NCBI GenBank assembly: GCA_002373615.1
Contig: DFKU01000050.1
Coordinates: 1 to 61,148 of the forward strand
Reading direction: 5' to 3'
DNA: 61,148 nucleotides
From: Alphaproteobacteria bacterium UBA3637
GTDB lineage: Bacteria; Pseudomonadota; Alphaproteobacteria; CAAHEQ01; UBA3637
Shown: in pieces, positions 28,174 to 60,748 of the stretch
Layout of the letters: every line of letters starts with the position of its first letter
Position numbering within the stretch: the stretch's first letter is position 1
The notes under the pieces: generated by a model
Told to the model about the DNA's origin: nothing
Database searches by the model: none
What the model saw: the letters and a program-made list of their open reading frames with translations, nothing else
Made by a program: the position numbers and the translations under genes

Positions 28174-28185
28174 AAGAGGAATATA

Positions 28186-31942: not shown

Positions 31943-31943
31943 A

Positions 31944-34684: not shown

Positions 34685-34699
34685 AATTGATATTATTAA

Positions 34700-34721
34700 G
34701 GGGAGCGATTTTCACTCCCCC
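34700..34721. terminator. Hairpin between the convergent GT8 and tail-fibre-associated genes
   Basis: GGGGAG-CGATTTTCA-CTCCCC. Confidence 0.55.
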
Positions 34722-34727: not shown

Positions 34728-35021
34728 TTATTCCTTGGGATACTTAGCTTTAATTTCGGCAATTTTTTGTTGCCATAGATTTGTGTTATTTACCTTATCC
34801 CAGTAAATCATATCTAATTGTTCAGCAATGACTGGATATTCAGCCAAACGTTTTTCTGCGTAGGTCGGCTCTGGTTTTATTGGGGTATATCCAGCAACAT
34901 ACCAAGCCCCATTATAGGCTTGTTCCACTTCCATTTGTGTAAAACCAGATGGAACATAATTTCCCAAAGCAACATCACATTGTTTTGTTGCATCATTTGT
35001 TATTTTGGCATACTTAAGCAT
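34728..35021 (-). CDS. Small phage-type protein downstream of the tail fibre (possible assembly or accessory protein)
   Basis: 97 aa. It overlaps the tail-fibre stop by 8 nt. The call rests on position only. Confidence 0.35.
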   Translation of the reverse strand: MLKYAKITNDATKQCDVALGNYVPSGFTQMEVEQAYNGAWYVAGYTPIKPEPTYAEKRLAEYPVIAEQLDMIYWDKVNNTNLWQQKIAEIKAKYPKE

Positions 35022-42520: not shown

Positions 42521-43522
42521 TTAAGTAATTTCTGTAATTGCGCGAATATTCCCATTACGATTAATTTGAACAACGCGCAATTTATCCTTCATTTCTTTAA
42601 AAAGTTTTTCTTCTTCTGAACCAGAAAAACTTTGGTGATTACTTTCGGCAATACGCCCGATAAAAGCACGATAGGCTTCATTTGGGTCCGCTGCATGAAT
42701 AGTAGCAAAACAGTTTTCATGTCCCGAATTCATCAGCTTCCAAATGGCATTCGCATTCGTTGTGGAAATTTCCCCCCCCAAAATCGCATCCGGCGTAAAA
42801 CGTACCACCAAATCAATCACATTCGCATAAGTAAAAGTATTTGTGGCTTCAGTACGAGAAACAACCAAGTGAACATGATTCGGTTGCTTTACAATCAATT
42901 CGCGGGTATCTTCAATGGTAATGATACGCTTATGTTCATCCAATAACTTAATCATATTATTCAAAAAAGTCGTTTTACCTGTAGCCGTTGCCCCGCTGAT
43001 CAAGATATTATCCCCCCGCTGAATGGATAAAACCAGACGTTCATAGGGGTCATCAGGATCTTCCACATCTTTTAATCTATTCAGTTGACGTAACCGTCCC
43101 CCTTGTGTTAAACCGAATTGTTCCATACCAATATCCAGATCTTCACGATACACACGAATGGCCATGGCAATACCACCCGTCAAATCATCATTATCGTACA
43201 TAACGTTCCGACCCGCTATCCCAGAAAAACGATGTCCGCCGGGAAGTGCTGCAAACACCACAGGCACCCCACCAACAGGATCATAGGCTAAGTCATAGGT
43301 GTTAGCAATGATGTACATAATATCATTCAAATATTCACGAGTCAGTTTTGGATCTTCATAATAATGCCACGGATGAGCATGTTTTCCCCTGAGACGCAGC
43401 CATATTCCCCCCGGATTATCTATTGCCACTTCTTCCACATTATCTTGGGAATACCAATAGGAAAGCGGCCGAAGGGTCATTTCTAAAACTTTATAGGTAT
43501 CTGTGATTGAAAGGGTACTCAT
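42521..43522 (-). CDS. virB11: Type IV secretion ATPase VirB11
   Basis: Walker A GATATGKTT, Asp box IITIEDTREL, Walker B PDAILGGEI, His box GHENCFATIHA. Confidence 0.9.
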   Translation of the reverse strand: MSTLSITDTYKVLEMTLRPLSYWYSQDNVEEVAIDNPGGIWLRLRGKHAHPWHYYEDPKLTREYLNDIMYIIANTYDLAYDPVGGVPVVFAALPGGHRFSGIAGRNVMYDNDDLTGGIAMAIRVYREDLDIGMEQFGLTQGGRLRQLNRLKDVEDPDDPYERLVLSIQRGDNILISGATATGKTTFLNNMIKLLDEHKRIITIEDTRELIVKQPNHVHLVVSRTEATNTFTYANVIDLVVRFTPDAILGGEISTTNANAIWKLMNSGHENCFATIHAADPNEAYRAFIGRIAESNHQSFSGSEEEKLFKEMKDKLRVVQINRNGNIRAITEIT

Positions 43523-46500: not shown

Positions 46501-49500
46501 CTCCTGATAATTGATTTGAGGTATTGAAATAATAACGATTCATCATAACCGACCCAATTGTTTTATCTGATCCCAAAGAAACGACTGATCCTGTTTCAGA
46601 AACAATTCCCAATACGCGTCCTGATTCAATGCTGGAAACAAAAGGAGAAGGTGTTTTTTCAAGCCCTATAATCATCCCTTTACTGGCAACATAAGGGTCA
46701 AAACCTGTTTGGGAAATCCTTAAACCATTGGCCTCTAAAATTTCCCCTGACGCACCAATAAAACCAACAGATTTAGAGGCCTCATTAAATGCTGTTGTTC
46801 CAAGGGTTAAAAAACGTCCAATTATTTGACCATTCACGTCAAAAACATGTCCGTCCAAACCAACTGAGCCAAGAACTCTTGTCCCATTTTCAATTTTTCC
46901 ATCTGCACGCAACCATCCCATTAATTGCCCATTGGTGTCTATGGCAATTCCCGGCGTTAAGATCTGACCTATAATGGCACCATCAGCATCATACAAGAAA
47001 GAACTATTTCCTATAACCGCAATCTGTTCCCCTTTGCCGGAGAGAACCTCACCTTGCGAGCTAACAGTCCCCAAATATTCCCCCATTGCGTCCACAACAA
47101 CGGCAGAACTCACAATATTTCCCATGAAATTTTGGGAAAGATCCAACGCTTCACCTGATGGTAAAATCGTTCCCGACATACGTCCATCTGGCGCATTCAG
47201 TTCCCCGTGAAAATTTGTCCATCCCACCAATTTACCATTTTTATTAACAAACGGAGCCAGTGAAATTAAGGATCCTTTAATGGTATTATCTTGTCCCAAA
47301 ATCAAGCCAGTACCAGAAACAGTCCCAATAAAATTACCTCTTATATCATTGACTTGAAATTGATAAGCTAAATCATTTGCCATTCCCGATAATTTAGGTT
47401 CAATAGATCCCACGAAGCCTTGAACAGAAACACCCACCGAAATTGATGGTGCCACTTGACCCAATATTTGATTTTTATCAGAAATGGCCAAGCCATTTGT
47501 CAAAACCCGGCCAATTTTAATTTGCCGATTATCCAAAATTTCAGCACGATTATTTGCAAAACCAACATACTTTCCATCGCTGGACAAAACCGGACCAACA
47601 GGAACAACACCTCCGACCAATTGTCCTTCCATATCCGTCACAGAACCATTTGCATGAATCGTATAATTTCCCATAGCATCTGGACCAATCAAAATCCCAT
47701 TTGCATTCAATGTTCCCAAAAAAGAACCATCTAATTTTATAAAAGTAGAACCTTCCGGAATTAATCTTCCGATAATATCTGTTCCTGTCTGATTGATGAC
47801 TGTAAAGCCCGGTAAAACACGACCTAATTGTCCCCCTGATTTATCTTTTAAGCTGCCTGTCAGTTGATTGTATTGACCCAAAATTTTACCGCTATCTGAA
47901 AACACTGTCCCAGAAAAGGGAACAACCCCTTTTAATTGACCTTTATCCCCAATAACCCAACCATTGAAATAAACATCCCCTAACCAATTTCCATTTTCAT
48001 CATAGGCTTTATTGCCAACAGAAGTCCCCCCCAAGGGATAACCATTTTCATCAACTATGACGCCCCTTGTATTTTGACTTAAAACTTGCAATTTTTTTTC
48101 ATAAACACACCCAATGATTTGGCCTTTATTATCCATAATCTGGCCATCCAAACGAACACGCCCAATCACTTGATTTTGTGCATTGATATAAAGCCCAAGC
48201 GGCGTCACTTCCCCGCTGATATCTCCTTGTAAATTTTGAACAGTCTTGTCTGGATTGACACATCCATTTTTTACTCCCTCCGTTGATACGACATCACCAT
48301 TCATAGAAATGAGCCCCAATAAACGGCAGCCTTCAGCTATGGCTGTTCCCCAAGGAACAATAGCCCCTATTTGTCTTTTTTTATCATCAACTGCTCTTCC
48401 ATCTGGCGTTATATGTCCCAGTTTTTTTAAAGATAAATTCACAACACTGCCATCTGGATAGACGGAGCCTGTATGAGTGCATCCCCCTGAGGTAATTAGA
48501 CCTTCAGGCATCAAAGACCCCACAAACGTTCTGTGTGCAAAAGCCGTTCCATCTGGATTCATAATACCAATTTGTGTCGCTTTAAAATTCAAGGCTTTTC
48601 CTTCAGAATTCACAAAGCCAATAGGAGTCCCCTCCTCATCAATGATAATACCTTCACGAATCACAGAACCCAATTCATTCATCTGATTATCGACAATGGA
48701 TCTATCCAATAAAACATGACCAACAGTTTGATCAAAAGAATCTTTCACCTCACCATTTAACTTTACTTCACCCAAGGAACGGCCACCGGCACCAACCCCA
48801 ACACCACGCGGCACAACACCACCAACCAATTCCCCTTTATCATTAATGGCAAACCCCATAGGACGCATAAAGGCTATTTTTACTTTTGACTCATTGACGA
48901 CAGAACCATCCGGCATAATAAGGCCTACGTAATTCCCCATGGAATCGATCACTGCCCCCCAAGGAGCAACAAAACCAATAGCATTTTTATTAGCATCAAT
49001 AACTTGGCCATCTACCCGCGGATATCCCATCACCTTTCCTTTGGCATCCACATATACAGCAATACCATTATTGACAACAAATTTTCCAAACACATTCCCT
49101 TGTTCATTCATGGCTGGCATTGCATAAATTGCCTTACCAACAATTTTAAAAGTTGTGGGATCAATAATCGTGTTATCGTTCAATAAACGTCCCACAACTT
49201 TTCCTTCGGGATTGACCACATCCCCATTTTTGGCAATATCCCCCATCAATTCATTTTTTAGATCCAAAGGAACTTTTTTAGGTTCTGTGATTCCTATAAT
49301 TTCACCGGTTTCTTTATTCTTTATCAAGCCTTCCGGTGTTTTTTCAGCATCCGGATTATTGGGGTCAACGGGTTTTCCATCAGGCCCCAATCCTTCTTCT
49401 GGACGAGCTTGCGCTTTTTCTTTTTCTTCACAACAAATCACACAATCTTTGGAATCTGTTGATTGTGCTTTCAGCATCACTGTTGTACGTTCTTTTCTGA

Positions 49501-50023
49501 ACACAGAAGGACTGTGTTCCTGCCATTCAATAACTAAAGTATTTTGAATATTACGCAGTGTTTTCGGAGCCCAAGACACGTTAATTGTACATTCTTCATC
49601 TTTTGCCAAACGTTCTTTCTCCATGCAGGATCCAGACAGAACAAAACCATCCGGTTGTTCTTCGATTAATCTTTTACTGATTAATCTGATTGGAGCATTT
49701 TCTGCTTTTAAAACAATCGGAGCCTCCGCCTCAGATCCAATTACAACGTTAGGCGTCATAACCACTTCTGATGGTGTGACAACAAGTTGCGCATCCCCTC
49801 TGGAACTTAAATTAGGCAAACCGGCTTCTTCCGTGCCATTCGGGTCAATCGGTTCAACTGTCCAATCTCCCGGATCCCTGCGCACCCTTTGAGTTGCTTG
49901 TTTGGGTTGCATGCGACACCAAGCCAACAAAAAGAGTAAAGCAATAACAAGCCCAAAAACCAACAACAAATAGTTGGTTCTGCGTTTGGATTGAGCTGAT
50001 AAACTTTCTCTATTTGGTGCCAT
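43532..50023 (-). CDS. virB10: Giant VirB10/TrbI-family protein (2163 aa) with a ~1450-aa repeat insertion
   Basis: N-terminal TM (YLLLVFGLVIALLFLLAW). C-terminal ~215 aa carry the TrbI/VirB10 core (AIPAVLARSIDS...IPAGSRLIGTF...ISWNRLIRPDGSAFDL...GDAQGRGGVAAYLD). The middle is built of ~17-aa G-x-[VI]-x-[DN]-x-x-G-x-x-[IV]-G units. Confidence 0.85.
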   Translation of the reverse strand: MAPNRESLSAQSKRRTNYLLLVFGLVIALLFLLAWCRMQPKQATQRVRRDPGDWTVEPIDPNGTEEAGLPNLSSRGDAQLVVTPSEVVMTPNVVIGSEAEAPIVLKAENAPIRLISKRLIEEQPDGFVLSGSCMEKERLAKDEECTINVSWAPKTLRNIQNTLVIEWQEHSPSVFRKERTTVMLKAQSTDSKDCVICCEEKEKAQARPEEGLGPDGKPVDPNNPDAEKTPEGLIKNKETGEIIGITEPKKVPLDLKNELMGDIAKNGDVVNPEGKVVGRLLNDNTIIDPTTFKIVGKAIYAMPAMNEQGNVFGKFVVNNGIAVYVDAKGKVMGYPRVDGQVIDANKNAIGFVAPWGAVIDSMGNYVGLIMPDGSVVNESKVKIAFMRPMGFAINDKGELVGGVVPRGVGVGAGGRSLGEVKLNGEVKDSFDQTVGHVLLDRSIVDNQMNELGSVIREGIIIDEEGTPIGFVNSEGKALNFKATQIGIMNPDGTAFAHRTFVGSLMPEGLITSGGCTHTGSVYPDGSVVNLSLKKLGHITPDGRAVDDKKRQIGAIVPWGTAIAEGCRLLGLISMNGDVVSTEGVKNGCVNPDKTVQNLQGDISGEVTPLGLYINAQNQVIGRVRLDGQIMDNKGQIIGCVYEKKLQVLSQNTRGVIVDENGYPLGGTSVGNKAYDENGNWLGDVYFNGWVIGDKGQLKGVVPFSGTVFSDSGKILGQYNQLTGSLKDKSGGQLGRVLPGFTVINQTGTDIIGRLIPEGSTFIKLDGSFLGTLNANGILIGPDAMGNYTIHANGSVTDMEGQLVGGVVPVGPVLSSDGKYVGFANNRAEILDNRQIKIGRVLTNGLAISDKNQILGQVAPSISVGVSVQGFVGSIEPKLSGMANDLAYQFQVNDIRGNFIGTVSGTGLILGQDNTIKGSLISLAPFVNKNGKLVGWTNFHGELNAPDGRMSGTILPSGEALDLSQNFMGNIVSSAVVVDAMGEYLGTVSSQGEVLSGKGEQIAVIGNSSFLYDADGAIIGQILTPGIAIDTNGQLMGWLRADGKIENGTRVLGSVGLDGHVFDVNGQIIGRFLTLGTTAFNEASKSVGFIGASGEILEANGLRISQTGFDPYVASKGMIIGLEKTPSPFVSSIESGRVLGIVSETGSVVSLGSDKTIGSVMMNRYYFNTSNQLSGGMVSSGAAITPTLGMIGTVASDGQIYKAGKKTAIVTGTGLVYSPNGELMGGIYAPNVFIDKRGSFAGVTSGTAAVYKSGIQIGNKMAFRSALSTDNMWLGNTMPNGGIVDDIGTYYGVVSTVDGTIVGDKNVFAGRVLPDGSVAGVPEKAVFNSMPYAGHTVQQGLPIGLNQGFKVLGRTTILGDVVDNAAKKLFRITDNAYVVNKSGQKPPVVARVFPIMSAVSNDGDVMGIASYDGTVISYQGEVHGRVDNAGLVRLNDAESEIDELRIQGFLIPEGLVVNDCKIVGQTAYDGRVINGQGSVVGRIGRDMWAVDANGSKIGRVVRNNEPCISGKQLMGRTLPDSTVVDLNGVEIGCATNSGEMLAPNGEKLCTIVERGVIIDEKGNIIGWTRSDGSIYNGESNIGQVDESGTAYDWNGNKIGINVGGQNTIFSDSEGVVKYIQGGDDIVKGTNGEPIFVVPPKGQLTDPWGNSLPDIHTSYVPGLGYLSGCDLVGYDGQKIASLMADGTLRDENGDLIYTVTPDGQVFTPDGNYVESFRGIDVSVLLKQCGMSGMGKSNRPARAINIGSNTYMVNSDGTITDESGMIIGYLGDDGRPYTWDNKVMSDPVSGNRERPDIHTPFKPTQAQIDDFTDKINKRRQGMKTQRERGAGTLKISAKIKEMAKPKKDKDWTKAGVSGKSISTWPVDMTHVVLQGKAIPAVLARSIDSRYSDVPAIAIVETNIYGEEGRNILIPAGSRLIGTFGGEGENAVNGVAKLQISWNRLIRPDGSAFDLSGSNSGDAQGRGGVAAYLDEQLWNKYGTSVLSTLASSAVSYLMATNEEVTVQTNMQTGQQTQSQTMSQRSQAMNDARKQFIEKIGDILDDMIAKAQQTPPVIFVPSGTRLTVFPSQDLWLRTPEDDADYMDKNPPKEEDDSEYQAKTPQGINSWTQQRRSEQDEKMPASSNTDIPSNNQQEMETPIYDGTDRMPDISDRKVAPVPLEDKPLF

Positions 50024-50033: not shown

Positions 50034-51707
50034 TTACTGAATTCGAACCACTGAGCAAGAAAATCCTCTGCGACCAATTTTGCGACACAAAGTATCGGCC
50101 GTTGACACATCTTTTACCATTCCTGCCCGCAAGCGGAAGACCTCCATCACATCCCCATCAGCCGTCGCATCTACGGAATAATAAGGCTCATAACCTGTTA
50201 AAATATCCTTATTTTTGGCATACACTTTATTCCATAAGGCCTCTAACTCTGAAATCTGGGAACTGGTACCAAATTCAATAGCAATAGATTCTGCTCCAAT
50301 ATTAGCCACAATATCCCCTTTCTTTTGAGAGGCCTCTTGAATCGCTTGGCTTGTCTGAGCACTTTGCCGCACTTCTTGCGGAATTGCACGTAAATTCTGC
50401 CATCCTTTTACACCATTACAACGTCCTGAACCTGTTTCATCATAGCAATAAGGTGCCGCATTTGTTGCATAAGGGTTATGAACCATCTCGGTCATCAGTG
50501 GCGTTCCATAAGGATTTAATCCTGTTGATTGTGGGACAGAATCGTACAAAACAGCCCCTCCCCCTGCCAATAAGGCGTTGGATGTTTGATGAGGGTTAGC
50601 GGTTCCTGGATTTGTTGGCATTCCTCCAACACTTTGCGTATTTGCAATTGAACCACTATAGTCTGTGTACTCCAGACCAGCAGCAGGATCCCGACGTAAC
50701 TTGATACAAATCAATTTTTTACCATTGCGCAAAACCAAATCCCCGATGGCTTCCACTACAATCAGACGACTGTTAGGACCACGTGCACGATAACCGACAG
50801 GAACCTCCGTGTCTTGAACCAATAAATTGACAATAGGACGTTGCGTCATCGTCAATGCCTTTGGTCCTAAATCAATATAGGTAAAAATGTTATCTCGCCA
50901 AATATTATCTGGCGCAATATCCACATCATCAGGATTTGGCAAAAACATATCTAAATCAAATTTAATACTTTCAGGATCCATCGGAATTGTTTTCAACCAA
51001 TCATTGGGTCCAGAAGAAGCCGTTGCCAACGAAGTTTGAGCTCCCGCCTTCCCATTTTTGACAGAACCGGAAACAGCCCCAGGTGCAGCCGCCATGGAAC
51101 TGGCACCATTTGCATCGACCATCTGCCCGCCATCAGCCGCGGGTGTCCATCGTGGTCCCACCAACACATCCACAACAGATTGTGTAATTTTATCTGTATT
51201 AAAGGTCTCACTGCGCAAATAGAAAACGTATCTATTCCCCGAACGACCAAAAATAATCATATTGCTGTCTACACCAATGTAGGAAGGATCCGCATAAACA
51301 AGTAATGAATTAGGCGCCACAATTTCCCCATTAAAAGATTCCGGCGATCCGATATGGACTTTTTCAATCAATTCCCAAGCAGGAAGATTGATCAACGTCA
51401 TCATCCCTTCACGCAACCGTACAGGTAAAACCGTATCGGGCGTCCAATTGTATTTAGAATATCCCGGTTTAGTCTGGCCCTCCCCCAAATGTTCCATTGG
51501 ATTATTCCAAGCTTTTTGTTGCATTCCCATAGAATGAATATAACTTAAATCAACCTGATCAAAAGAACCAGCATTTTGATTGATTGCATCCATCATTAAT
51601 GCGCTTTCTGTATCAGTTGGTGTTTGAATTTGCGCATAAGACACGAACGAAACCAAAAGGGAAAAAATCCCCCCCGCCAAAAATGGATAAATGGTTCTTT
51701 GTTTCAT
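50034..51707 (-). CDS. virB9: VirB9-like outer-membrane core protein fused to a C-terminal SPOR domain
   Basis: Signal peptide after the ATG at 51707 (RBS GGGAGGA). VirB9 N-domain (...LINLPAWELIEKVHIGSPESF...NRYVFYLRSE). VirB9 C-domain (FTYIDLGPKA...RPIVNLLV...LVLRNGKKLICIKL). The last ~85 aa (IAIEFGTSSQISELEALW...FRLRAGMVKDVSTADTLCRKIGRRGFSCSVVR) are SPOR-like. Confidence 0.75.
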   Translation of the reverse strand: MKQRTIYPFLAGGIFSLLVSFVSYAQIQTPTDTESALMMDAINQNAGSFDQVDLSYIHSMGMQQKAWNNPMEHLGEGQTKPGYSKYNWTPDTVLPVRLREGMMTLINLPAWELIEKVHIGSPESFNGEIVAPNSLLVYADPSYIGVDSNMIIFGRSGNRYVFYLRSETFNTDKITQSVVDVLVGPRWTPAADGGQMVDANGASSMAAAPGAVSGSVKNGKAGAQTSLATASSGPNDWLKTIPMDPESIKFDLDMFLPNPDDVDIAPDNIWRDNIFTYIDLGPKALTMTQRPIVNLLVQDTEVPVGYRARGPNSRLIVVEAIGDLVLRNGKKLICIKLRRDPAAGLEYTDYSGSIANTQSVGGMPTNPGTANPHQTSNALLAGGGAVLYDSVPQSTGLNPYGTPLMTEMVHNPYATNAAPYCYDETGSGRCNGVKGWQNLRAIPQEVRQSAQTSQAIQEASQKKGDIVANIGAESIAIEFGTSSQISELEALWNKVYAKNKDILTGYEPYYSVDATADGDVMEVFRLRAGMVKDVSTADTLCRKIGRRGFSCSVVRIQ

Positions 51708-51776
51708 CTTTCCTCCCAATTTTTATTTAAATCTTTTGACATCTTAATCCAAAATCATCAGAATGTCCACACTTTT

Positions 51777-52487
51777 TTAATTTGTGTCTTCATTTTCTTC
51801 TAAACTTCTGCGCCCAAATCTCGTAACCATAAAGCCCAATGGATTTCTGAGACGTTGAGCCCACGACATCTTCCTATGGGTTGGTTGAAACATAACTTCC
51901 ATCGTAATCAACCATTTTGAAGTATATTGTTCGCTGATTCTTTGGCTCATATTCACCAATTCAACTTCAGCCACCCACCGACTGCTATCCGGATATTTTT
52001 CTTGCCTATTCACCCGTAAAATACGAACATCACGCGTCAAACCATCTCTTTGAGCTTGTTCCAAACCTTTAATAGATTCTGTTTTAAAAAAGGTATCATA
52101 AACCGACGATTCACTCATTGCAAAAATCGGCCCATCAATTCCCCAACGTTTTTCCATCTCTGCAACATCTGAACTAATTCCGAAACGAGCCAATAAGTAT
52201 TCACGCACCAATGATTCTTGCAGGACTTTTAAATCTTCATCAGACATAGAAGAAAAATCAGGGCGCACGATTGAAATCACTTGATAATCTTTATTTTGGG
52301 CTTGCATATAAAAGGGTTGTACCCGTAACAAAGGGGTCAAACCAGACAAGGCAACAAGTATCAGTATATTCGCAATAAACGCCAGCACGGCAATCAAAGA
52401 AAAAGCACGGGCCATCCACAAGTATCGTTCTTCTTGCAAAACTTCTTTTTCTGAATACTGATCATTTGTGTTTTGTGGTTCTACCAT
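51777..52487 (-). CDS. virB8: VirB8-family protein (copy I)
   Basis: N-terminal TM, then LVREYLLARFG... and the C-terminal RNPLGFMVTRF motif. The ATG at 52487 is preferred over the GTG at 52517. Confidence 0.8.
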   Translation of the reverse strand: MVEPQNTNDQYSEKEVLQEERYLWMARAFSLIAVLAFIANILILVALSGLTPLLRVQPFYMQAQNKDYQVISIVRPDFSSMSDEDLKVLQESLVREYLLARFGISSDVAEMEKRWGIDGPIFAMSESSVYDTFFKTESIKGLEQAQRDGLTRDVRILRVNRQEKYPDSSRWVAEVELVNMSQRISEQYTSKWLITMEVMFQPTHRKMSWAQRLRNPLGFMVTRFGRRSLEENEDTN

Positions 52488-52504: not shown

Positions 52505-52681
52505 TTAACCAAGCCACTCAGGTAATTCGGGAGCTTTTTTCAATTCCAAACATGCACAGGGTGATTTTTTTAGTTCGGAATAATCTTTTCCAATCCCTAC
52601 AGGCTCTTGTTCATAAATGGAACCACACGCTACCAAGGCCAATACAGCCAATACAAGCAAAGTAACTGTTATTTTTTTCAT
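52505..52681 (-). CDS. virB7: VirB7-like small lipoprotein (58 aa), not in the ORF track
   Basis: My translation is MKKITVTLLVLAVLALVACGSIYEQEPVGIGKDYSELKKSPCACLELKKAPELPEWLG, with lipobox L-V-A-C. It sits between the two virB8 paralogs. Confidence 0.6.
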   Translation of the reverse strand: MKKITVTLLVLAVLALVACGSIYEQEPVGIGKDYSELKKSPCACLELKKAPELPEWLG

Positions 52682-52753: not shown

Positions 52754-53386
52754 TTAATTTTTTGCAGATTTTACGTCTGCTTCTTCAAAACGTGTAAAAA
52801 CAAGCCCGTACGGATTGGTAAAAAAGGGAGAAAAACGACGCCGCGCCGAAAAATATCCGAATTCCAAAATGGCATTTTTTTCTTTGAAACGCACTTGATT
52901 ATCTGCTAAAACTTCGTACACATGAAATGTCACATCAAAACGGTTATTGGTACGTTCTAATCTTTTGATTTCAATAGATGATACAGAGTTTGGCAAGCCT
53001 TCAATTTTCTTTTCCAGTTCCTGAGCAAAATCACTATATACGGATGGCAATGAAAGTAAATAAAGAGGCCCTCCCCTACCCCAACGATACACCATTTCGT
53101 CTGGGTCTGGATATTGTTCATATCTGATAGACAAATAATAGCGCACCAACATTTCATCTATTTTTTCTCTATCAACAACTTCCATCGGTACAACAGTATT
53201 TAATTGGGAAAATTCATGCAAAGTTGCAGAATCCTTCGTCGCTGAAAAAATTTGGGCATTTACCTGTAATTCTTTTTCTGTTTGAAGAGCCGTCAGGGAC
53301 AGTAAAACAAGCACAGATAAAGACAAAAAGGCGCAAAATAAACTAACACGAAAAAAAATAAGTAACCTTAATTTTTTCAGTGCCAT
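52754..53386 (-). CDS. virB8: VirB8-family protein (copy II, divergent)
   Basis: TM helix, then MLVRYYLSIRYEQY... and the C-terminal FTNPYGLVFTRF. The ATG at 53386 is preferred over the TTG at 53413. Confidence 0.7.
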   Translation of the reverse strand: MALKKLRLLIFFRVSLFCAFLSLSVLVLLSLTALQTEKELQVNAQIFSATKDSATLHEFSQLNTVVPMEVVDREKIDEMLVRYYLSIRYEQYPDPDEMVYRWGRGGPLYLLSLPSVYSDFAQELEKKIEGLPNSVSSIEIKRLERTNNRFDVTFHVYEVLADNQVRFKEKNAILEFGYFSARRRFSPFFTNPYGLVFTRFEEADVKSAKN

Positions 53387-53400: not shown

Positions 53401-54960
53401 TTAGAATTGACAATTTGCCAACAACGGCATATTTTCACGTTGTTTATCCATAACGGAATTAATTTGCTGATATGATTCCGCTATAATTTTATCCGTTGAC
53501 TTTTTTTCCCGCATCAACTGATCCACATTGATCGCATTGGTTTGCGTCAAATAGACTGAAGCTCCTTCATCTTTTTCCAGTGCCATCAAAGCAAGACGTT
53601 GTTGAACTGTTGGCGACATTTGAGAAACATGCAGTGTCTCTGACATATCAGCTGTGGCAGTTTGAGCTTCTGCTGACAAACGTGCGCGTTTTTGTGATTT
53701 CAATCGTTCACGACGTGCCACATAATCTGGATTTTCTTTGTCTTGTTTTTCTAATTGTTCTGTGTATTTATATGCTTCTTCAATAGCTTTTTTCTTCAAT
53801 TCTTTCAACTGTTTTTGAACACGCACATAATGTCCACGATTAGAAATATCAAAATCTGTTGTGTCTATTCCCAATTCATTCAACTTTTCAATAAATGGTT
53901 GAACCATTTTTTGTTGAGCTGCGGCAGTTCCTAGACTTCCTTTATCCATTGCATCAACCACCAAAGTTATTTCATATTCATTTTCTAAATCACTTTTTTG
54001 GCCAACTTTAGCTTCAACCGTTGGGGTCATACTTTTCCCAACAAACGCCTTTGACATTTCTCCGCCATCTGTATAATTTTTAAATTTATCATTTGACATT
54101 TTTTTCCATGGTTCCGGCAGCTCTGGAATTACATTTCCCGTCAAGGGATCAATTCGCACAATATCCTTCCAGTTAGGAAGTGCTTTGGGTGCTTTTGGCG
54201 GATTACCGCTCACCGCTGTTGGATTTGTTGGACGACGCCCCTGGCTGATTTCAGCGACATATGCTTTATGTGCTGATAAAACTGTATTATATTTTGCCGC
54301 ATTATGACGCGTTTCTTCATCCACTGCAGGGCGTCCCTTTAAAGGAGCACCGTATGCCACATTCAAATTTTCATAAAATTGATTCCATTCCTTTTCAAAC
54401 AAAGAAATTTGATCTTGCCATAAAGGAAATGATTCGCCAGAATTAACTTTTCCCCATTTTTCAGGGTTCGCATACACATCCATCATAATATCACGATTGA
54501 TTGTCCAACCGGCCATTTCATTTTGTTGGCGTTGTCGCAAGGACATTGTCAATTTATCTTGATTTTGATTTTCAATTTCCTTTTGTGAAACTTGACGTTT
54601 CTGCTCATAAGTAGCCATCATTTTTGACCAAACTTCTTCTGGGTTTTTAAAGACCTTCCCTAATTTTTTGACGTTGCAAGAGGTGATATTCTTTTGCATT
54701 TCTTTAAAAAGTTCCCCTTGTTTTTTCAAATTTGCAGAAGTTTGAGCCGTATCACGCAACCCAGGCATTTCATTCATTAAATTATGAATTAAAAATGCTT
54801 TTTCTAAAGCTTCATTTTCATCTGTTAAATATGTTGTAACTTGTATAGATTGAGGCTGAGGAGCACGGCTGGCACGCAAAGTAATACTGGCCATTGAAGG
54901 AAAAGAAATCAATCCAGCCAACATTAAACAAACACCTAAAGAAATCGTTTTTTTATACAT
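53401..54960 (-). CDS. Secreted coiled-coil protein (519 aa), T4SS-operon associated
   Basis: Signal peptide MYKKTISLGVCLMLAGLISFPSMA. Lys/Glu/Gln-rich helical regions. I see no VirB motif. Confidence 0.55.
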   Translation of the reverse strand: MYKKTISLGVCLMLAGLISFPSMASITLRASRAPQPQSIQVTTYLTDENEALEKAFLIHNLMNEMPGLRDTAQTSANLKKQGELFKEMQKNITSCNVKKLGKVFKNPEEVWSKMMATYEQKRQVSQKEIENQNQDKLTMSLRQRQQNEMAGWTINRDIMMDVYANPEKWGKVNSGESFPLWQDQISLFEKEWNQFYENLNVAYGAPLKGRPAVDEETRHNAAKYNTVLSAHKAYVAEISQGRRPTNPTAVSGNPPKAPKALPNWKDIVRIDPLTGNVIPELPEPWKKMSNDKFKNYTDGGEMSKAFVGKSMTPTVEAKVGQKSDLENEYEITLVVDAMDKGSLGTAAAQQKMVQPFIEKLNELGIDTTDFDISNRGHYVRVQKQLKELKKKAIEEAYKYTEQLEKQDKENPDYVARRERLKSQKRARLSAEAQTATADMSETLHVSQMSPTVQQRLALMALEKDEGASVYLTQTNAINVDQLMREKKSTDKIIAESYQQINSVMDKQRENMPLLANCQF

Positions 54961-54968
54961 CTTCCCCC

Positions 54969-55805
54969 CTATTTATTTTTATCATCACCCAAACCATAGT
55001 TTTCAATTTCTGACGGTGTATTATTTTCACCGGCAGCGTTTTGAGGTGTCATTGGCTCAGGCCCTGATTGTAAAGCAGATTCATCGATTATTGCTTGCGT
55101 TGGAATTTTTGTTGTATCTATATCAGCTTCCATTGTTTCTGCACGAGCACGAACACGCGCAGCGATAACACGCTTACGTAATACCATCAAAGCATCCAAG
55201 ATCAAACGACGTGTCGCAACTGTACTGGCCGCATCGCTATAATCAGTATAACTGCCAGAAGAAACCTTCTCTGCAATGGCAGCCAATTCTGCATATGTCT
55301 TTTTCATGACCAAAGCGTCCGTCATGGCCTGAATAGCACGTTGCTGTGCACGATATTCAATCGCCCATTTATCTGCAGACAATTCATCCAAAGATGCCTG
55401 TCCTTTCATGATTTCCCTTGTTCTTAAATCTGCCAATTTCCCAATAGAGGTTTCTTGAATTTTAATATCTGATGGATAGGCGCCAAATTCCGCAGGAATA
55501 TCCGTCACGGATGAAGCAACTGCATTTAATACAAGTTTAGTTGAAATAGAACCTTTGTCACCAGTATAAGCTCCACCACAGCCACCTGAACGACCCTGTT
55601 CCCCTTCAAAAACCAATTTGGCTGTCAACTTCTGGTCATCTGTAAGAAAGTATTTAACAGCTGTAGATAACCCACGTCCGATGGCTCCAAATACATCAAA
55701 ACTGAGATAAGAAAACCGTTGTGCACAAACACCCGCCGCTTGAGCCCGAAACGTTCCTAAGATTAATCCCAATGAAATTAAAGCGATAAAAAATGTCTTT
55801 TTCAT
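54969..55805 (-). CDS. Secreted helical protein (278 aa), T4SS-operon associated (VirB5/TrbJ-like size and architecture)
   Basis: Signal peptide MKKTFFIALISLGLILGTFRAQA and a helical C-terminal half. Confidence 0.5.
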   Translation of the reverse strand: MKKTFFIALISLGLILGTFRAQAAGVCAQRFSYLSFDVFGAIGRGLSTAVKYFLTDDQKLTAKLVFEGEQGRSGGCGGAYTGDKGSISTKLVLNAVASSVTDIPAEFGAYPSDIKIQETSIGKLADLRTREIMKGQASLDELSADKWAIEYRAQQRAIQAMTDALVMKKTYAELAAIAEKVSSGSYTDYSDAASTVATRRLILDALMVLRKRVIAARVRARAETMEADIDTTKIPTQAIIDESALQSGPEPMTPQNAAGENNTPSEIENYGLGDDKNK

Positions 55806-55807
55806 AT

Positions 55808-56659
55808 CTATTTCCTTTCTGCACTGGTCGGTTTTGCTTCATTCATTAATTCAATAGGTTGACCGGATAAGAAATGAATTGCATCTGCCTCCATCATTTC
55901 AATTTGTAAAGCCAAGTCCACCAATGCCATTTTTACCATTTGTTCCAATGTATGGGCATCCACTGCAATAGATCCCAATTCCCCATCCCCTGACACAGCC
56001 GCAGAAGAAATACTTTCCAAATCATTTTGGATATACCCTTTGACACGATATCCCAACGAGATATGGCGACCCGCTGCTTCTTGAGTATACTTATTTCTTT
56101 GAGCACGAATTTTATTTTTATACTCTGTCGTTTTTTGTTCGGATTTTGTTGGGTCGGCAAAAAATTCCGTTTTTACTGCTGTTCTTATATTTGCACGGAC
56201 AGTTTCATTGTTTTTAGCAGAAGCAAGAGCCGTTTTTAAGGGCGAATATCCCACATTTCCTTCATTTGCCAAAATTTCCGCATTCACATAATCAAAGGCA
56301 GAACCAGAAAATTCAGAACCCGCAACTGAACCGGGGTTTAATTGTTCAGTGGTTGTATTCGTTGTTGCCGCAGATCCCCCCGCGCCACAGGCCTTTTGAT
56401 TATCCTCTTCCTGAGTAGCAATTAATTGGGCTTTAGATTCCCCATCCCCTGTTAAGGAAATAATGCCGGCAATAAGCCCTGTAATACTACGCACACTGTC
56501 TGTCGTCACATAAGGTTCTATCGGTACTGCTACAGCACCACACAAAGGAGTTTCACATGGACATTTAGCACTATATCCATTAGGAAGAAATGCCATTACC
56601 TCCTTGACCAAAAAAACACATCCTGCAAACGTTCCCAATAAAATCAGACTTTTTTTCAT
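55808..56659 (-). CDS. Secreted protein (283 aa), T4SS-operon associated
   Basis: The ATG at 56659 has RBS GGAGG. Signal peptide MKKSLILLGTFAGCVFLVKEVMA. Helical C-terminus ...LEQMVKMALVDLALQIEMMEAD. Confidence 0.5.
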   Translation of the reverse strand: MKKSLILLGTFAGCVFLVKEVMAFLPNGYSAKCPCETPLCGAVAVPIEPYVTTDSVRSITGLIAGIISLTGDGESKAQLIATQEEDNQKACGAGGSAATTNTTTEQLNPGSVAGSEFSGSAFDYVNAEILANEGNVGYSPLKTALASAKNNETVRANIRTAVKTEFFADPTKSEQKTTEYKNKIRAQRNKYTQEAAGRHISLGYRVKGYIQNDLESISSAAVSGDGELGSIAVDAHTLEQMVKMALVDLALQIEMMEADAIHFLSGQPIELMNEAKPTSAERK

Positions 56660-56660
56660 C

Positions 56661-57509
56661 TTATTCCTCCGTTTCATCAGACCCATCTATCAAAACAGGT
56701 CCTGTTTCGTTGATAATGCGCAGCCCTGACGCTTCCAAATCGCGCCCCATCAAGGCATTGACATCATTGATTTGACGATGCGTATCTAACACAATATCTG
56801 CCATACGATTATACAGTCCCGTCGGCGAGGTTTGTTTGTTGAAATTTTCAGCCAATTTTTCAAAGTGCTTCTCCAGAGATAGCGTTTCTTTATCGGTTGT
56901 TTTGGTATTTTCTTTTGATTTTTCATCTTCTGATTCTTCTGCGGTGGTTTGACTGTCTTTGGCATCTTGTTTAGCAGACATATTTAAAACCTTATCGGCC
57001 GTTGCAGAAGCCAAAGTAACCGATGCCAACAACCATTCATTTTGACGTTGCGTTGCACAACTTTTATCATCCAAATCGCAGTCCCCTTTTATCGCTGCAT
57101 CGGGTGTTTCAAATAAATATTCTTGTACAGCTTGACGCGTATTTTCAAATATTTTCTCATCAGAAACCTTTGTCAATTCTATTTGAGCTATCACCTGATC
57201 TGCGGTATACACAGTTGCCAATGATGAATCCCCAGAAGTTCCAGAGCTCCCCGAAGATCCTCCCCCTGAGCCCCCACCTAAAGCTTTCTCTAATTGTTTA
57301 ATGGCTTCACCGGCTTTGACGGTACGCTCCCCCAATTTTTCGCTGGTAACCCATGCATCCGCTCCTGTCGCTAGGGTCATTGCAGGGTCAATCCAGGCAT
57401 GCCAAAGCCAAGGAAAAGTTAAATTTTGGTTTCCTATGATAGGGAAGGAAAAAGCAGGCAAAGAAATAACCGCCACAATACCAGCCAAAACAATATTTGA
57501 TTTTTTCAT
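56661..57509 (-). CDS. Secreted protein (282 aa), T4SS-operon associated
   Basis: The ATG at 57509 lies 8 nt after AAGGAGG. Signal peptide MKKSNIVLAGIVAVISLPAFS, a Gly/Ser linker and acidic helical regions. Confidence 0.5.
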   Translation of the reverse strand: MKKSNIVLAGIVAVISLPAFSFPIIGNQNLTFPWLWHAWIDPAMTLATGADAWVTSEKLGERTVKAGEAIKQLEKALGGGSGGGSSGSSGTSGDSSLATVYTADQVIAQIELTKVSDEKIFENTRQAVQEYLFETPDAAIKGDCDLDDKSCATQRQNEWLLASVTLASATADKVLNMSAKQDAKDSQTTAEESEDEKSKENTKTTDKETLSLEKHFEKLAENFNKQTSPTGLYNRMADIVLDTHRQINDVNALMGRDLEASGLRIINETGPVLIDGSDETEE

Positions 57510-57522
57510 TATCATTGCCTCC

Positions 57523-58581
57523 TTAATCTGTTAACTCTGCTGTATCAGGGATTGCTCTGGCCGCTTCAATTGTTAGAACGGATCCTTGTAACATATTCCC
57601 TTGATTCAGGCGTTGCGCCAATTCCAAATTCATCATAGCCACAATTTTCATGGCCGCCACAGTATTCACCCCGGTTCCAATTATGGTACTCAAATCTTGA
57701 ACAGCGATTTTATTGGCTTCCCCATTTGTTGCAACTGCTATTAATTTTTTTCTTGTTTTGTCTCTTTCATCCTCTGACAAAGAGCTACTTTCATCATCTT
57801 CCATGGCTTGCTGCACAGATTTCAGACCCAATTCCGCATGGGCAATACCCGCCGTACCATAATTTTGTTCATTTTGTATTTGGCGTATAGCAACTTGGTC
57901 GCGTTCTTCTGAAGTCATGCTGTCATATTTTGAACAAACAGAATATTTTGCAGCACATGACCCTGCCCCCGGTATTTCATCGGAATCTTCCGTTGTTGAA
58001 GAAGCATTACTTTTTGATTGTAACCATTCCAAATCTTCTAAAATCTTTTCACGTGTTTCATCTGTGACAATTTCAGTCACCAAGGTTCCGACCCCAACGG
58101 CTTCGATCCCTACATTTTTAAGAGCCGCTGCCTGAAAAGGTAATTTTTGAAACATTGAATCATATTTGGTTCCGCCAGGACTCCCCTTATTTCCCGCACC
58201 ATTACTTTTGGCCGCCTTTTGATATTCATCCTGAGGTTTTGGTTTCCATTTTGTTGTCACATCTTTCATCGAATTTAAAACCATATATTCTGCTGTCAGT
58301 TGCGCGGGATCTATGTTGATAGCGGGAACATGTGGGGTTCCGATAGAAACGTAATATTCAGGAGGCTTAACGAACGAAATAACTGCCCCCAAAGCTCCCA
58401 AAGCAATTCCCGCATAGGGGCTGATGGTTGAAGCAGCCGTTCCTGCCGCTGTTTGGGCAACACCACCGGCAATCATACCCAGCGTACCGGTCTGACCAAA
58501 GGCTGTTGTCGAAATAATGGTACCAGCCATCAGCCCAACCATTAACGTTTCTTTGAATATATTCATACAAGATCTTTTCAT
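57523..58581 (-). CDS. Secreted/membrane-associated protein (352 aa), T4SS-operon associated
   Basis: RBS AAGGAGG. N-terminal signal-like segment, then a Gly/Ala-rich hydrophobic stretch (GMIAGGVAQTAAGTAAST...GIALGALGAVISFV). Helical C-terminus. Confidence 0.5.
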   Translation of the reverse strand: MKRSCMNIFKETLMVGLMAGTIISTTAFGQTGTLGMIAGGVAQTAAGTAASTISPYAGIALGALGAVISFVKPPEYYVSIGTPHVPAINIDPAQLTAEYMVLNSMKDVTTKWKPKPQDEYQKAAKSNGAGNKGSPGGTKYDSMFQKLPFQAAALKNVGIEAVGVGTLVTEIVTDETREKILEDLEWLQSKSNASSTTEDSDEIPGAGSCAAKYSVCSKYDSMTSEERDQVAIRQIQNEQNYGTAGIAHAELGLKSVQQAMEDDESSSLSEDERDKTRKKLIAVATNGEANKIAVQDLSTIIGTGVNTVAAMKIVAMMNLELAQRLNQGNMLQGSVLTIEAARAIPDTAELTD

Positions 58582-58592: not shown

Positions 58593-60557
58593 TTATTGTG
58601 ATTCCCCCGGACGAATTGTAATACTTGGCGCCGGAGAACTGGGTTCGCTTGGGGTTGTTGTTTTTTCATCAATCGCATTTAAATTGACCGCCCCTTGCAA
58701 TCCTAATTGAACTGCTGATAAGGCCGCCCCGCGTGTGATTTCAAATAAAACAAGACGATCTGCATCCGTGATTGCACTGATGCCACCTAAACTGCCTTGA
58801 GCCCCATCAACTGCATCTTTAAACGCTTGTGCCCGATCATAGAATGTAGATGATATTGCATTTGATCCTTCCCCAATTTGGGTGGCAGCTGTCGCCCATT
58901 CTCCCAACAGTAAGGCTCTGCGTTTTCTGATTTCTTTTTGTTCATTTGTTGTTAATACATCCGCTGAGGGGGTGGAGGTCACTTGACCGGTCCCCGCTGA
59001 TTGCCCCCCTGAGGTTCCGGCAGACATAGAAATCGCAGGCGTCGATGTATTTTCTTTTGGTTTTTCTATATCTTTTGACAACAAGCTGATGTCAATTTTC
59101 CCCATATTTAACAAAGCAATTAAAGAATTTGCCGCCCCCGAAATCGTTGTGGCAGAAATAGGAGTATCGGGTTGCACCGTAGATGCCCCGGAAATAGGGG
59201 TACCTTGAGATTCACCCATAGGCTCTGCTCCTACTATTCTGACTTTTTTGGTGGCATCATCATGTTTATTGCCTTCCACAGCCTCCATAATAATCAAAAC
59301 GTACTGTGGCACATTGGATACACTGACGGGCGCCCAAAGACTTCCGGGCTCGGGAACTCCGCCAGCCCCACCTTCTCCACCTTCTGACGCATTTGGTTTT
59401 ATAGGCGTATCGGATTTTGCCTCTGGTGTATCTCCCATCGGTTGCAAATCTTTTGCTGGCACGGTTTGAGGTCCTGATTCACCTTGGATAGTCACATTAC
59501 CTTTGCCATCTGTACCTATCACCTGGACCGCAGTTCCATCATAACGAACCATATCCCCAACCTGTGGGTTCATAGGTGCTGTTGATGGAGTTGTTGCACC
59601 AGCTAAATCAGTTGAGTTTGAGGGAAAACGAGCCTGTGAAACATCATATTCATTAGCTACTCCACTACCGTCCGCATATCGAAAAGTCCCATCTGACATT
59701 TTATTGATAGTTGTTCCGTATTCTGTTGTCTTTGTATCCACAACAGTGGGAACAGTGGAACCACCAGCGGTACTACCAGCAGAGGCAGAAGTGGATGAAG
59801 CAGGAGCACCAGTCGGCTGCCAACCTTTTTCACTCCCCAAGTACACCAGCGTTTCATCAGTAGTATACTCACCAATTTCTGGAGACGAAGGAGTTGTTGT
59901 GGCTGAACCGCCACCAGCGCCAGCAGCAGAGGCAGGTGCAGAAGTGGATGAAGCAGGAGCGCCAGTCGGCTGCCAACCTTTTTCACTCCCCAAGTACACC
60001 TGCGTTCCATCAGTAGTATACTCACCAATTTCTGGAAACGAAGGAGTTGTTGTGGCTGAACCGGCAGTAGGGGTAGAGGCAGGTATAGGAGCGGGTGAAG
60101 TTTTTGTGGCTACATAACCAGGATCAGGAGCCCTATCAGCAAACGTACCACCACCAACAGCAGGGGTAGATGTAGTAGTGGATGAAGTAGTTGTGGCTGA
60201 ACCGGTCGTGCTAGTAGTAGTGGTAGCAGCAGTAGAGGCGGGCGCAGAAGTGGATGAAGCAACTGCAGCAGAACTCGCTTGTTGTGTTGTCATCCCTTGT
60301 GGCACTTGCCCCCAGTTTTTTCCATACCAAACAAAGTCAGTCGATTGGTTTCCTGAACTCACGGTTACCACTTGACCAACATGATCCCCACTAAAAGACG
60401 GCGCAGAAGGAGTGTTGACCTGAATTCCTCTAATACGAGCATTCGTCTCAGTTACAAAAGGATTTCCACTATAACCAGGAATGGGCGTTGCTCCATATCC
60501 AGCCCCAGACACCAACACTGTTCCCAACAATAAAACTTTTAAGAGATTTTTATGCAT
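58593..60557 (-). CDS. Secreted Ser/Thr/Ala-rich (mucin-like) protein with small beta modules, first gene of the T4SS operon
   Basis: The real start is the ATG at 60557 (RBS AAGGGGGA), with signal peptide MHKNLLKVLLLGTVLVSGAGYG. The upstream 'MPRQARHD...' extension in the ORF track is MITE sequence. Repeated IGEYTTD.T.VYLGSEKGWQPTG modules are separated by STA-rich linkers. Confidence 0.65.
   Translation of the reverse strand: MHKNLLKVLLLGTVLVSGAGYGATPIPGYSGNPFVTETNARIRGIQVNTPSAPSFSGDHVGQVVTVSSGNQSTDFVWYGKNWGQVPQGMTTQQASSAAVASSTSAPASTAATTTTSTTGSATTTSSTTTSTPAVGGGTFADRAPDPGYVATKTSPAPIPASTPTAGSATTTPSFPEIGEYTTDGTQVYLGSEKGWQPTGAPASSTSAPASAAGAGGGSATTTPSSPEIGEYTTDETLVYLGSEKGWQPTGAPASSTSASAGSTAGGSTVPTVVDTKTTEYGTTINKMSDGTFRYADGSGVANEYDVSQARFPSNSTDLAGATTPSTAPMNPQVGDMVRYDGTAVQVIGTDGKGNVTIQGESGPQTVPAKDLQPMGDTPEAKSDTPIKPNASEGGEGGAGGVPEPGSLWAPVSVSNVPQYVLIIMEAVEGNKHDDATKKVRIVGAEPMGESQGTPISGASTVQPDTPISATTISGAANSLIALLNMGKIDISLLSKDIEKPKENTSTPAISMSAGTSGGQSAGTGQVTSTPSADVLTTNEQKEIRKRRALLLGEWATAATQIGEGSNAISSTFYDRAQAFKDAVDGAQGSLGGISAITDADRLVLFEITRGAALSAVQLGLQGAVNLNAIDEKTTTPSEPSSPAPSITIRPGESQ
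59785..60063. repeat. 153-bp (51-codon) tandem direct repeat, about 1.8 copies, inside 58593..60557
   Basis: GCAGAAGTGGATGAAGCAGGAGC[A/G]CCAGTCGGCTGCCAACCTTTTTCACTCCCCAAGTACACC... recurs with offset 153 (59785 vs 59938). Confidence 0.8.
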
Positions 60558-60647: not shown

Positions 60648-60748
60648 GTCATTGTCATGCCTCGCTTGACGGGGCATCTTTTGATGAGATTCCCGCTCTC
60701 GCTATCGCTCGGCAGGAATGACAGAGTGGGGAAAGCGACAGGAATGAC
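60648..60748. mobile_element. Palindromic MITE-like repeat (about 1.5 copies) between uvrA and the T4SS operon
   Basis: GTCATGCCTCGCTTGACGGGGCATC-TTTTGATGAGAT-TCCCGCTCTCGCTATCGCTCGGCAGGAATGAC, plus an extra ...GACAGGAATGAC. Confidence 0.6.

Follow-up and report, generated by a model that had tools for sequence, protein, structure and literature searches.

The locus and its gene array

We analyzed a 61,148-nucleotide (nt) stretch of DNA (the window) from Alphaproteobacteria bacterium UBA3637 (contig DFKU01000050.1), focusing on an array of six genes for exported proteins that opens a type IV secretion system (T4SS) operon and on the relationship of its products to the T4SS component VirB5. On the minus strand, open reading frames (ORFs) and gene calls form one tightly packed gene string from 60677 to 42521. 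The string opens with six consecutive minus-strand ORFs, in the order 694 (654 from Met41), 352, 284/282, 292/283, 278, and 519 amino acids (aa), and past them the operon continues with virB8a-virB7-virB8b-virB9-giant virB10-virB11. The six proteins are named p694/654, p352, p284/282, p292/283, p278, and p519 after ORF length and start-corrected length. Independent gene calls on the source contig gave 694/352/282/283/278/519 aa, and the intergenic gaps among the six genes, computed from the gene-call starts, are 1 to 14 nt. The genes of the operon are as follows.

58593..60557 (ORF to 60677), minus strand: p694/654; signal peptide, variable Ser/Thr/Ala/Pro-rich N-terminal region, conserved C-terminal module of ~255 aa
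57523..58581, minus strand: p352; signal peptide; probable paralog of p284
56661..57509, minus strand: p284/282; signal peptide; paralog of the p292 (VirB5-like) superfamily
55808..56659, minus strand: p292/283; divergent VirB5 homolog by profile comparison
54969..55805, minus strand: p278; possible VirB5-like paralog
53401..54960, minus strand: p519; exported, highly conserved, fold unassigned; operon member, not of the paralog family
52754..53386, minus strand: virB8a, 210 aa from the gene-call start; divergent VirB8 paralog
52505..52681, minus strand: virB7-like lipoprotein, 58 aa; LVAC lipobox, "LKKSPCAC" motif
51777..52487, minus strand: virB8b, 236 aa; Pfam VirB8 E = 3e-13, PDB 4MEI VirB8 E = 0.0046
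50034..51719, minus strand: virB9, 561 aa; Pfam CagX E = 3.9e-14
43532..50023, minus strand: giant virB10, 2163 aa; PF03743 (precomputed), TrbI domain at the C terminus
42521..43522, minus strand: virB11-type ATPase, the last T4SS gene of the operon; Pfam T2SSE E = 7.5e-22

All six array proteins begin with a predicted Sec-type export signal, which on heuristic inspection consists of an MKK-type basic start, a hydrophobic core of 12 to 20 residues, and an AxA-like site, and this feature is kept in the orthologs. The initial annotation had described six tightly packed ORFs with signal peptides here, and we confirmed both the ORFs and their positions, 654 aa being the better length for the first gene product. 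Because the ortholog consensus of p694 begins at Met41 (MKNFLKVLLLG) and a terminator-like hairpin overlaps the far-upstream ATG of the first ORF, this gene most likely starts at Met41 (60557). The hairpin (60657-60677), a perfect 8-base-pair (bp) stem-loop just 3' of uvrA, probably serves as the terminator of uvrA, whose 3' end adjoins the operon upstream. None of virB2, virB3, virB4, virB6, and virD4 was found in the window, the remainder of which consists of housekeeping genes, e.g., those for DnaK, BipA, and GlgB, and the T4SS is therefore chromosomal and split over several loci.

Genome and metagenome scans gave few long loci, and synteny was established by exact look-ups of homologs in 12 loci and in two distant operons, L030 and L031, each of which encodes one of the distant p292 homologs described below. 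The gene order is the same in the 12 loci and the upstream flank varies (uvrA, a tRNA synthetase, or infB), which places the start of the operon at the first of the six genes. Co-occurrence of the array with T4SS genes in related genomes had no exception among the loci of sufficient length, L030 and L031 included. Five array genes precede the p519 homolog in every complete locus (the window, L004, L005, L011, L012, L013, L015, L020, and L030), and L031 has five plus an extra 431-aa gene. The order is 231-228-696-[224]-243-541-virB8a-virB7-virB8b-virB9-virB10 (2430 aa) in L030 and 431-229-495-269-[550]-305-496-virB8a-... in L031. In both, the three genes next to virB8a are orthologs of p292 (P = 2e-24 and 6e-29), p278 (P = 5e-6 and 2.5e-6), and p519 (P = 1e-40 and 1e-36), and those further upstream are not recognizably orthologous to window genes. 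The operon belongs to a clade of uncultured gut Alphaproteobacteria that is represented among metagenome-assembled genomes (MAGs) of human gut and yak omasum. No paper on T4SS in gut RF32-type Alphaproteobacteria turned up in a literature search.

Profile links of the array proteins to VirB5

The homolog families comprised 36, 51, and 32 proteins for p278, p292, and p284, respectively, all of them unannotated and from uncultured "Alphaproteobacteria bacterium" MAGs or metagenomes, and the p352, p694, and p519 families were built from the syntenic loci. The alignments are labeled A1 (p278), A2 (p292), A3 (p284), A5 (p352), A7 (p292 superfamily), and A9 (p694C, the C-terminal module of p694). 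When the p292 family profile was searched against 1.84 billion representative proteins at a cutoff of E <= 1e-3, 68 representatives were retrieved. Short distant homologs (220 to 260 aa) start after the signal peptide with "AQYPVFDP," "ATFVVTD," "GQLVVSD," or similar, a mature start ("PVFD / FVVTD / LVVSD") that is typical of VirB5/TrbJ, and end with "ALQI.L.ELEAA," the counterpart of "ALQIEMMEADA" in p292. Long distant homologs (390 to 607 aa) have a low-complexity N-terminal extension, "GIPV," and the same module, which is the architecture of p694. The mature-start motif is also clear in array members of L030 and L031; the window proteins have it in degenerate form and some way past the cleavage site ("NIDPAQL," "WIDPAM," "VTTDSVR," and "SFDVFG").

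The connection to VirB5 runs through plasmid T4SS proteins. The T4SS of Microvirga pMVF16-3 encodes an exported 273-aa protein (Mv_273) after virB4, with a weak match to PF07996, the VirB5/TraC/TrwJ/TrbJ family (E = 0.17). Its only plasmid relative, the 251-aa Ery_251 at the same position on an Erythrobacter plasmid, passes PF07996 (E = 6.8e-7; 30.3 bits versus a gathering cutoff of 24.7), and the two proteins together match a set of five PF07996 members (P = 5e-6). Compared with Ery_251 and Mv_273 by hhalign, the widened p292 profile gave a probability of 90.9% (P = 1.2e-6; reversed control, 0.3), and an independently built alignment gave 82.8% (P = 9.4e-6), the match spanning the "FF" motif and the last two helices. 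With the superfamily hidden Markov model (HMM), Ery_251 and Mv_273 scored E = 3.9e-6 and 7.6e-6, and the best decoy scored 0.16, in a test set of 74 sequences. Iterative HMM expansion of the superfamily recruited only these two proteins.

Besides, the p292 superfamily matches p284 (A7-A3) with an hhalign probability of 90.2% (P = 1.5e-6) over 72 central columns. At the level of sequence profiles, these comparisons show that p292 is a VirB5 homolog and that p284 is homologous to the p292 superfamily. Each plasmid also encodes a second, longer VirB5-like paralog downstream of the VirB5-position gene, namely, Mv_428 (428 aa; L021:14044-15330) and Ery_453 (453 aa; L032:9802-11163), annotated only as hypothetical proteins and matching Mv_273/Ery_251 at P = 8.4e-9 by hhalign. 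p278 matches Mv_428/Ery_453 at P = 5e-4, and both lie at the equivalent next-gene position.

p284 in turn matches p352 (A3-A5) with 54.3% probability (P = 1.3e-4) over 221 collinear columns, signal peptide excluded. Against the p292 superfamily, hhalign gave 39.9% for p278 (A7-A1; P = 3e-4), 17% for p694C over 89 columns (A7-A9; P = 1.5e-3, with 9.4e-4 in another comparison and a range of 17 to 22%), 6% for p352 (P = 0.006; 71 columns), and 1.6% for p519 (P = 0.031; 23 columns). All-against-all BLASTP of the six proteins returned no match, and neither Pfam nor NCBIfam produced a relevant hit for the six or for 118 homologs. After signal peptide removal, hhalign linked five of the six in a chain (p694C-p292, p292-p278, p292-p284, and p284-p352), with P values of ~0.001 to 0.02 over ~200 collinear columns (for A1 versus A2, P = 0.0012 over 208 columns); reversed-sequence controls mostly had P > 0.1. 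We discounted the first A1-A2 (92%) and A1-A3 (70%) comparisons, which were driven wholly or partly by signal peptides. In an all-against-all comparison of 18 nodes, 16 real pairs reached P < 0.02 versus 1 of 153 reversed controls, and none of the 16 involved p519. Judged from their sequences, the array paralogs are ancient and mutually unrecognizable by BLAST.

The initial annotation had placed the likeness in a shared C-terminal helical module of ~90 aa. Our comparisons assign it instead to the whole mature domain of ~200 aa, and the C terminus alone was not significant (p278 versus p292 over 90 to 120 residues; hhalign P = 0.095). All motif strings quoted there are present in the proteins, and the quoted helices are in register for p278/p292, p694/p292, and p284/p292, whereas the equivalent of the terminal helix in p352 is "LTIEAARAI" and not "MMNLELAQRL." The shared motif lies 20 to 55 residues from the C terminus, and the tails beyond it differ among the six and vary within families.

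The individual proteins keep recognizable family features. In p292, a "V.TD..R.I.G.I" helix is followed by a Gly-rich loop, small helices with an "FFADP" motif, and two last helices of ~40 residues each ("KIRAQRNKY..." and "...LALQIEMMEADA"). p284 has a "WIDPAM" motif, a helix, a Gly/Ser-rich linker, a "TR.AI.EYLFET" motif, a CxxxxxxC pair, and a C-terminal part with a "RQNEWLLASVTLASA" helix and then a terminal "GRDLEA.GLR." p352 carries the "NIDPAQL" motif, a conserved CxxxxxxC pair, a helical C-terminal half, and a second short hydrophobic Gly/Ala-rich segment, which we rejected as a hidden VirB2 pilin (P = 0.07). p278, which is orthologous in all related operons and always stands directly after the p292 homolog, has an "FDVFGAIGR" helix, a GGCGG loop, the long helices "YRAQQRAIQAMTDALVMKK" and "LRKRVIAARVRARAETMEAD," and a variable acidic tail. 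In p694, conservation among orthologs, which vary in length from 393 to 789 aa, is confined to residues ~448 to 688; in its variable N-terminal region (59785-60063), a 153-bp tandem repeat (1.8 units, 96% identity) encodes two copies of a 51-aa segment that reads "...PEIGEYTTD.T.VYLGSEKGWQPTGAPASSTSA."

p519, which had been counted among the sharing members, has nothing detectable in common with the other five: it found no match in the all-against-all hhalign comparison, showed no detectable similarity to VirB5 or VirB8 by hhalign, and had no PDB match. We also rejected it as a match to the C-terminal half of Mv_428/Ery_453, to VirB9, or to VirB8, there being no signal. It has an invariant C-terminal C.F and a mean column identity of 72%, and it always lies directly upstream of virB8a. 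p519 is best read as a separate, well-conserved periplasmic accessory protein ahead of virB8a and not as a member of the paralog family.

The AlphaFold2 models of p278 (predicted local distance difference test score [pLDDT], 59) and p292 (67.6 overall and ~90 over residues 150 to 210) share the same order of elements: signal peptide, helix of ~30 residues, disordered Gly-rich loop, short helices, and two terminal helices of ~40 residues. At this low to moderate confidence, helix order and lengths are as in VirB5, a three-helix bundle plus appendage (TraC, 1R8I; TrwJ), but neither the models nor Foldseek searches with them confirmed that fold.

Taken together, p292 is probably a highly diverged VirB5, and p284, p352, p278, and p694C are probably ancient VirB5-like paralogs, the support being good for p284, moderate for p352, and weak for p278 and p694C. 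Protein by protein, membership in a VirB5-like family appears very probable for p292, likely for p284, and somewhat favored for p352, and the odds are even for p278 and p694C. The initial annotation is therefore partly confirmed as an observation and partly supported in its interpretation: its proposal of a VirB5/TrbJ relationship stands for p292, through transitive profile searches, is plausible for up to four more proteins, and fails for p519.

A possible stalk or pilus tip and competing explanations

We favor, with a probability of roughly 60%, the interpretation that the array encodes up to five VirB5-like stalk-tip or pilus-tip subunits, the non-core exported part of the split chromosomal T4SS. 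In the R388 system, a VirB5 pentamer on a VirB6 pentamer forms the stalk tip, which moves outward with each VirB2 layer inserted below it (PMC9259494), and the adhesive tip is considered to consist of VirB5-type proteins (PMC2653234; PMC2883598). We infer the location, assembly, and adhesin role of the array proteins by analogy: after export by Sec, they would sit on the VirB6 platform, forming the tip of the periplasmic stalk, and would then move outward at the end of the VirB2 fiber and contact the target surface there. p694, with a variable, repeat-bearing Ser/Thr/Pro-rich arm on a putative VirB5-like domain, would fit a displayed adhesin.

Related operons bear on this assignment. An array gene of L030 (L030_228; L030:7213-7899) matches PF07996 directly (E = 7.7e-4), and L030_231 and L031_229 score above decoys with a broad VirB5 HMM. 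The 495-aa product of L031:7680-9167 looks like a VirB5-like/VirB2 fusion: it has a VirB5-like N terminus ("FTPVLSDAPQF") and, at its C terminus, a TrbC/VirB2 pilin domain (E = 1.4e-4). The PF07996 match in L030 and the VirB2 domain in L031 thus argue that the array consists of pilus or stalk-tip parts. By eye, the pilin domain is clearly similar to the VirB2 of Microvirga. The extra first gene of L031 (L031:5608-6903; 431 aa) encodes a Ser/Thr-rich N terminus and a Cys-rich C-terminal domain with a faint Pesticin/phage-lysozyme match (E = 0.14), and its product may be a VirB1-like wall hydrolase.

Like the VirB5/TraC/TrwJ/TrbJ proteins, the array proteins have a Sec signal peptide and a mature length of ~220 to 260 aa, are encoded in a T4SS operon, and are predicted to be all-helical, a small appendage being surrounded by one N-terminal helix and two long C-terminal ones; in addition, the p292 superfamily has profile homology to the PF07996 member Ery_251, and its distant members keep the "PV.D" mature start. 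They differ from that family in that the window proteins do not even approach the Pfam model and have a Gly-rich loop inserted after the first helix, and in that up to five mutually unrecognizable copies, one with a variable extension of ~400 aa, replace the usual single copy.

Several results weigh against a tip of VirB5-like subunits. No window protein matches PF07996 (the six were examined at E <= 1) or any other Pfam or NCBIfam model. The close p292 family alone matched the Ery_251/Mv_273 pair at only P = 0.036, so the VirB5 link depends on the widened profile, and that profile matched the classical PF07996 members at P = 0.26, or 0.011 with the Ery/Mv proteins included. The A7-A1 match spans only the 25-residue terminal motif, one reversed control reached P = 0.012 to 0.018, so that single links at P ~0.01 are unreliable, and iterative HMM search left p278, p284, p352, and p694C at or below decoys. 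Foldseek searches of the PDB with the p278 and p292 models (pLDDT 59 and 68) gave best E values of 0.66 and 1.5, to generic helical hairpins, with no TraC, TrwJ, or CagL among the 50 hits listed. Finally, the array genes lie before virB8a and not at the classic place of virB5 between virB4 and virB6, and no gene for an interaction partner (virB2, virB4, or virB6) lies in the window.

The direct searches have to be read in the light of the family. In the p278 and p292 families (85 members), PF07996 had no match at E <= 10, and it had none among 33 distant p292 homologs at E <= 1; sequence-profile searches of the PDB with A1, A2, A3, A4, A5, and A7 retrieved no T4SS structure. A profile of five PF07996 members gave no signal against the six families, a comparison of low power, as it missed the VirB5 of Agrobacterium tumefaciens too (P = 0.08). 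Since that VirB5 is also missed by PF07996, weak direct scores are usual for the family.

The alternative that survives best, which we nevertheless consider unlikely, is that only p292, and perhaps p284, is VirB5-like, the rest being unrelated lineage-specific periplasmic or surface accessory proteins or antigens whose likeness reflects composition and helical periodicity. The failure of BLAST to relate the array proteins, the hhalign probabilities of only 6 to 40% for p278, p352, and p694C against the superfamily, their omission by iterative HMM search together with the reversed control at P = 0.012, and the unrecognizable orthology of the upstream genes between the window and L030/L031 would all fit such an origin. 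However, the weak matches extend over long collinear stretches and keep family-invariant residues in register, and real pairs at P < 0.02 outnumber reversed controls by 16 to 1. Furthermore, L030_228 (by PF07996), L030_231, and L031_229 match VirB5 profiles independently, and p278 matches the second VirB5-like plasmid protein at the equivalent gene position.

It is very unlikely, in our view, that the VirB5 likeness as a whole stems from profile drift or coiled-coil-like composition and that the set is a new family unrelated to known T4SS parts. The P value of 0.26 against classical PF07996 members and the failure of Foldseek and PDB profile searches to retrieve a VirB5 structure would be expected in that case, but the reversed controls for the key comparisons (P = 0.15 to 0.3), the agreement of two independently built alignments (83% and 91%), and the four orders of magnitude by which the HMM parts Ery_251/Mv_273 from the best decoy would not. 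Besides, the bridging proteins are encoded by complete plasmid T4SS operons, in which their genes follow virB4 and occupy the place of virB5, and the weakness of direct scores is normal, given that the A. tumefaciens protein itself escapes PF07996.

Slightly less probable still is that the six proteins are Sec-exported cargo, a multisubunit complex that would form in the periplasm and be released through the T4SS, like the pertussis toxin subunits S1 to S5 encoded upstream of ptl. Pertussis toxin B subunits have an OB-fold, whereas the modeled proteins here are all-helical, and Pfam and NCBIfam detected no enzymatic or toxin domain in the six, including ADP-ribosyltransferase A or OB-fold B subunits. 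Although five or six tandem signal peptide genes directly upstream of T4SS genes, the lack of virD4 after virB11 in the operon, and the likewise VirB5-less Ptl system (PMC2653234) recall such an arrangement, the homology of p292 and p284 to VirB5-type structural proteins and the VirB2 pilin domain within the array of a related operon point to pilus parts.

Returning to VirB5-like tip subunits, their constant number, five even in highly divergent operons, makes it attractive to suppose that they are not redundant and that the stalk or pilus tip would be a hetero-pentamer in which each of the five is present once, in place of the homopentamer that VirB5 forms in R388. p694 would then be the subunit with the variable adhesin arm, and a sister lineage would have fused one subunit to the VirB2 pilin. 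We regard this extension as doubtful; the match between a count of five and the known five-fold symmetry of the VirB5 tip makes it a concrete, testable structural hypothesis.

VirB5 is the T4SS part that meets the target cell and is among the components hardest to spot by sequence; the rvh and Ptl lineages have been described as lacking it (PMC2653234). The gut clade combines an rvh-like core and a giant VirB10 with a hidden, previously unannotated VirB5 homolog and up to four putative ancient paralogs, which suggests that its bacteria display an elaborate contact organelle. The new profiles can be used to search again for "missing" VirB5 in other divergent systems.

Comparison with known systems and the rest of the window

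The conjugative T4SS of Microvirga pMVF16-3 and of an Erythrobacter aureus plasmid have two successive VirB5-like paralogs that parallel the p292-p278 pair, and that of Microvirga has a homologous 58-aa VirB7. The VirB11 of Microvirga pMVF16-3 is 41% identical to that of the window and is its closest VirB11 in the plasmid collection. Unlike the window operon, both plasmids carry a whole conjugation system in a single locus, relaxase, virB2-B4, and virD4 included; they have a VirB10 of normal size, two VirB5-like genes instead of five, and no p519 homolog.

The core genes follow rvh islet C (PMC2653234), which has the same order virB8a-virB7-virB8b-virB9-virB10-virB11, a duplicated divergent VirB8, a VirB7 with a "KKSP"-plus-Cys motif, and a T4SS split over several loci. 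In contrast, rvh has virB9a before virB8a and virD4 after virB11, where the window has the VirB5-like array and p519 before virB8a and no virD4 after virB11; rvh is also described as lacking virB5, and a VirB5 homolog is predicted here. virB8a matches VirB8b with an hhalign probability of 98.5%, and its orthologs have a weak Pfam VirB8 match; in a PDB search, VirB8b was not specifically close to a Rickettsia structure. The gene for the 58-aa lipoprotein between the two virB8 genes was not in the original ORF list and is present in every syntenic locus, and a homolog is found in Microvirga pMVF16-3. Its "LKKSPCAC" fits the "[KI]KSP"-Cys motif reported for Rickettsia RvhB7 and for ComB7 (PMC2653234).

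The Bartonella Trw system (PMC2883598) likewise has several VirB5-type genes (trwJ) per locus, and neither system has an adjacent coupling protein gene. Both trwJ (VirB5) and trwL (VirB2) are amplified there, and the VirB5-type genes are thought to give variant forms of a surface-exposed tip or adhesin (PMC2883598). However, the Trw duplications are recent and in tandem: their copies still resemble one another clearly, copy number varies from species to species, and trwI/trwH are coamplified. The copies here are ancient, share no BLAST similarity, number five per complete locus, and come without copies of virB6 or virB7 in the array. A recent amplification like that of the Trw system, which the initial annotation had cited as a precedent, is not supported.

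Helicobacter pylori CagL, CagI, and CagH (PMC3164655) offer another parallel: their genes are neighbors, all three are exported and helical, and one is a VirB5 analog. They have a common short C-terminal motif and are needed for pilus formation (PMC3164655). The Cag hexapeptide makes up the last six residues, whereas here an "E-x-M-E-A"-like motif ends the last helix and variable tails follow. PDB profile searches found no sequence similarity of the array proteins to Cag proteins.

The VirB10 homolog of the window, at 2163 aa, is approximately fivefold the usual size and has the TrbI domain at its C terminus only; in all related loci, VirB10 is 2136 to 2430 aa. CagY of the H. pylori Cag T4SS is a giant repeat-rich VirB10 homolog, and the long region ahead of the TrbI domain here, which by eye is full of degenerate Gly/Val-rich repeats, recalls it. 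In VirB9 (561 aa), the last ~80 residues have a weak match to the peptidoglycan-binding SPOR domain (E = 0.017).

Downstream of the operon lie a dUTPase-like gene and then a gene for an SH3 protein. Elsewhere in the window, positions 27000-34700 form a block of low G+C content (32 to 36%, versus ~40 to 47% elsewhere) with glycosyltransferase genes. Adjoining this block, an ORF on the minus strand (35014-36027) encodes an N terminus that matches the phage T7 tail-fiber N-terminal domain (E = 3.3e-8).

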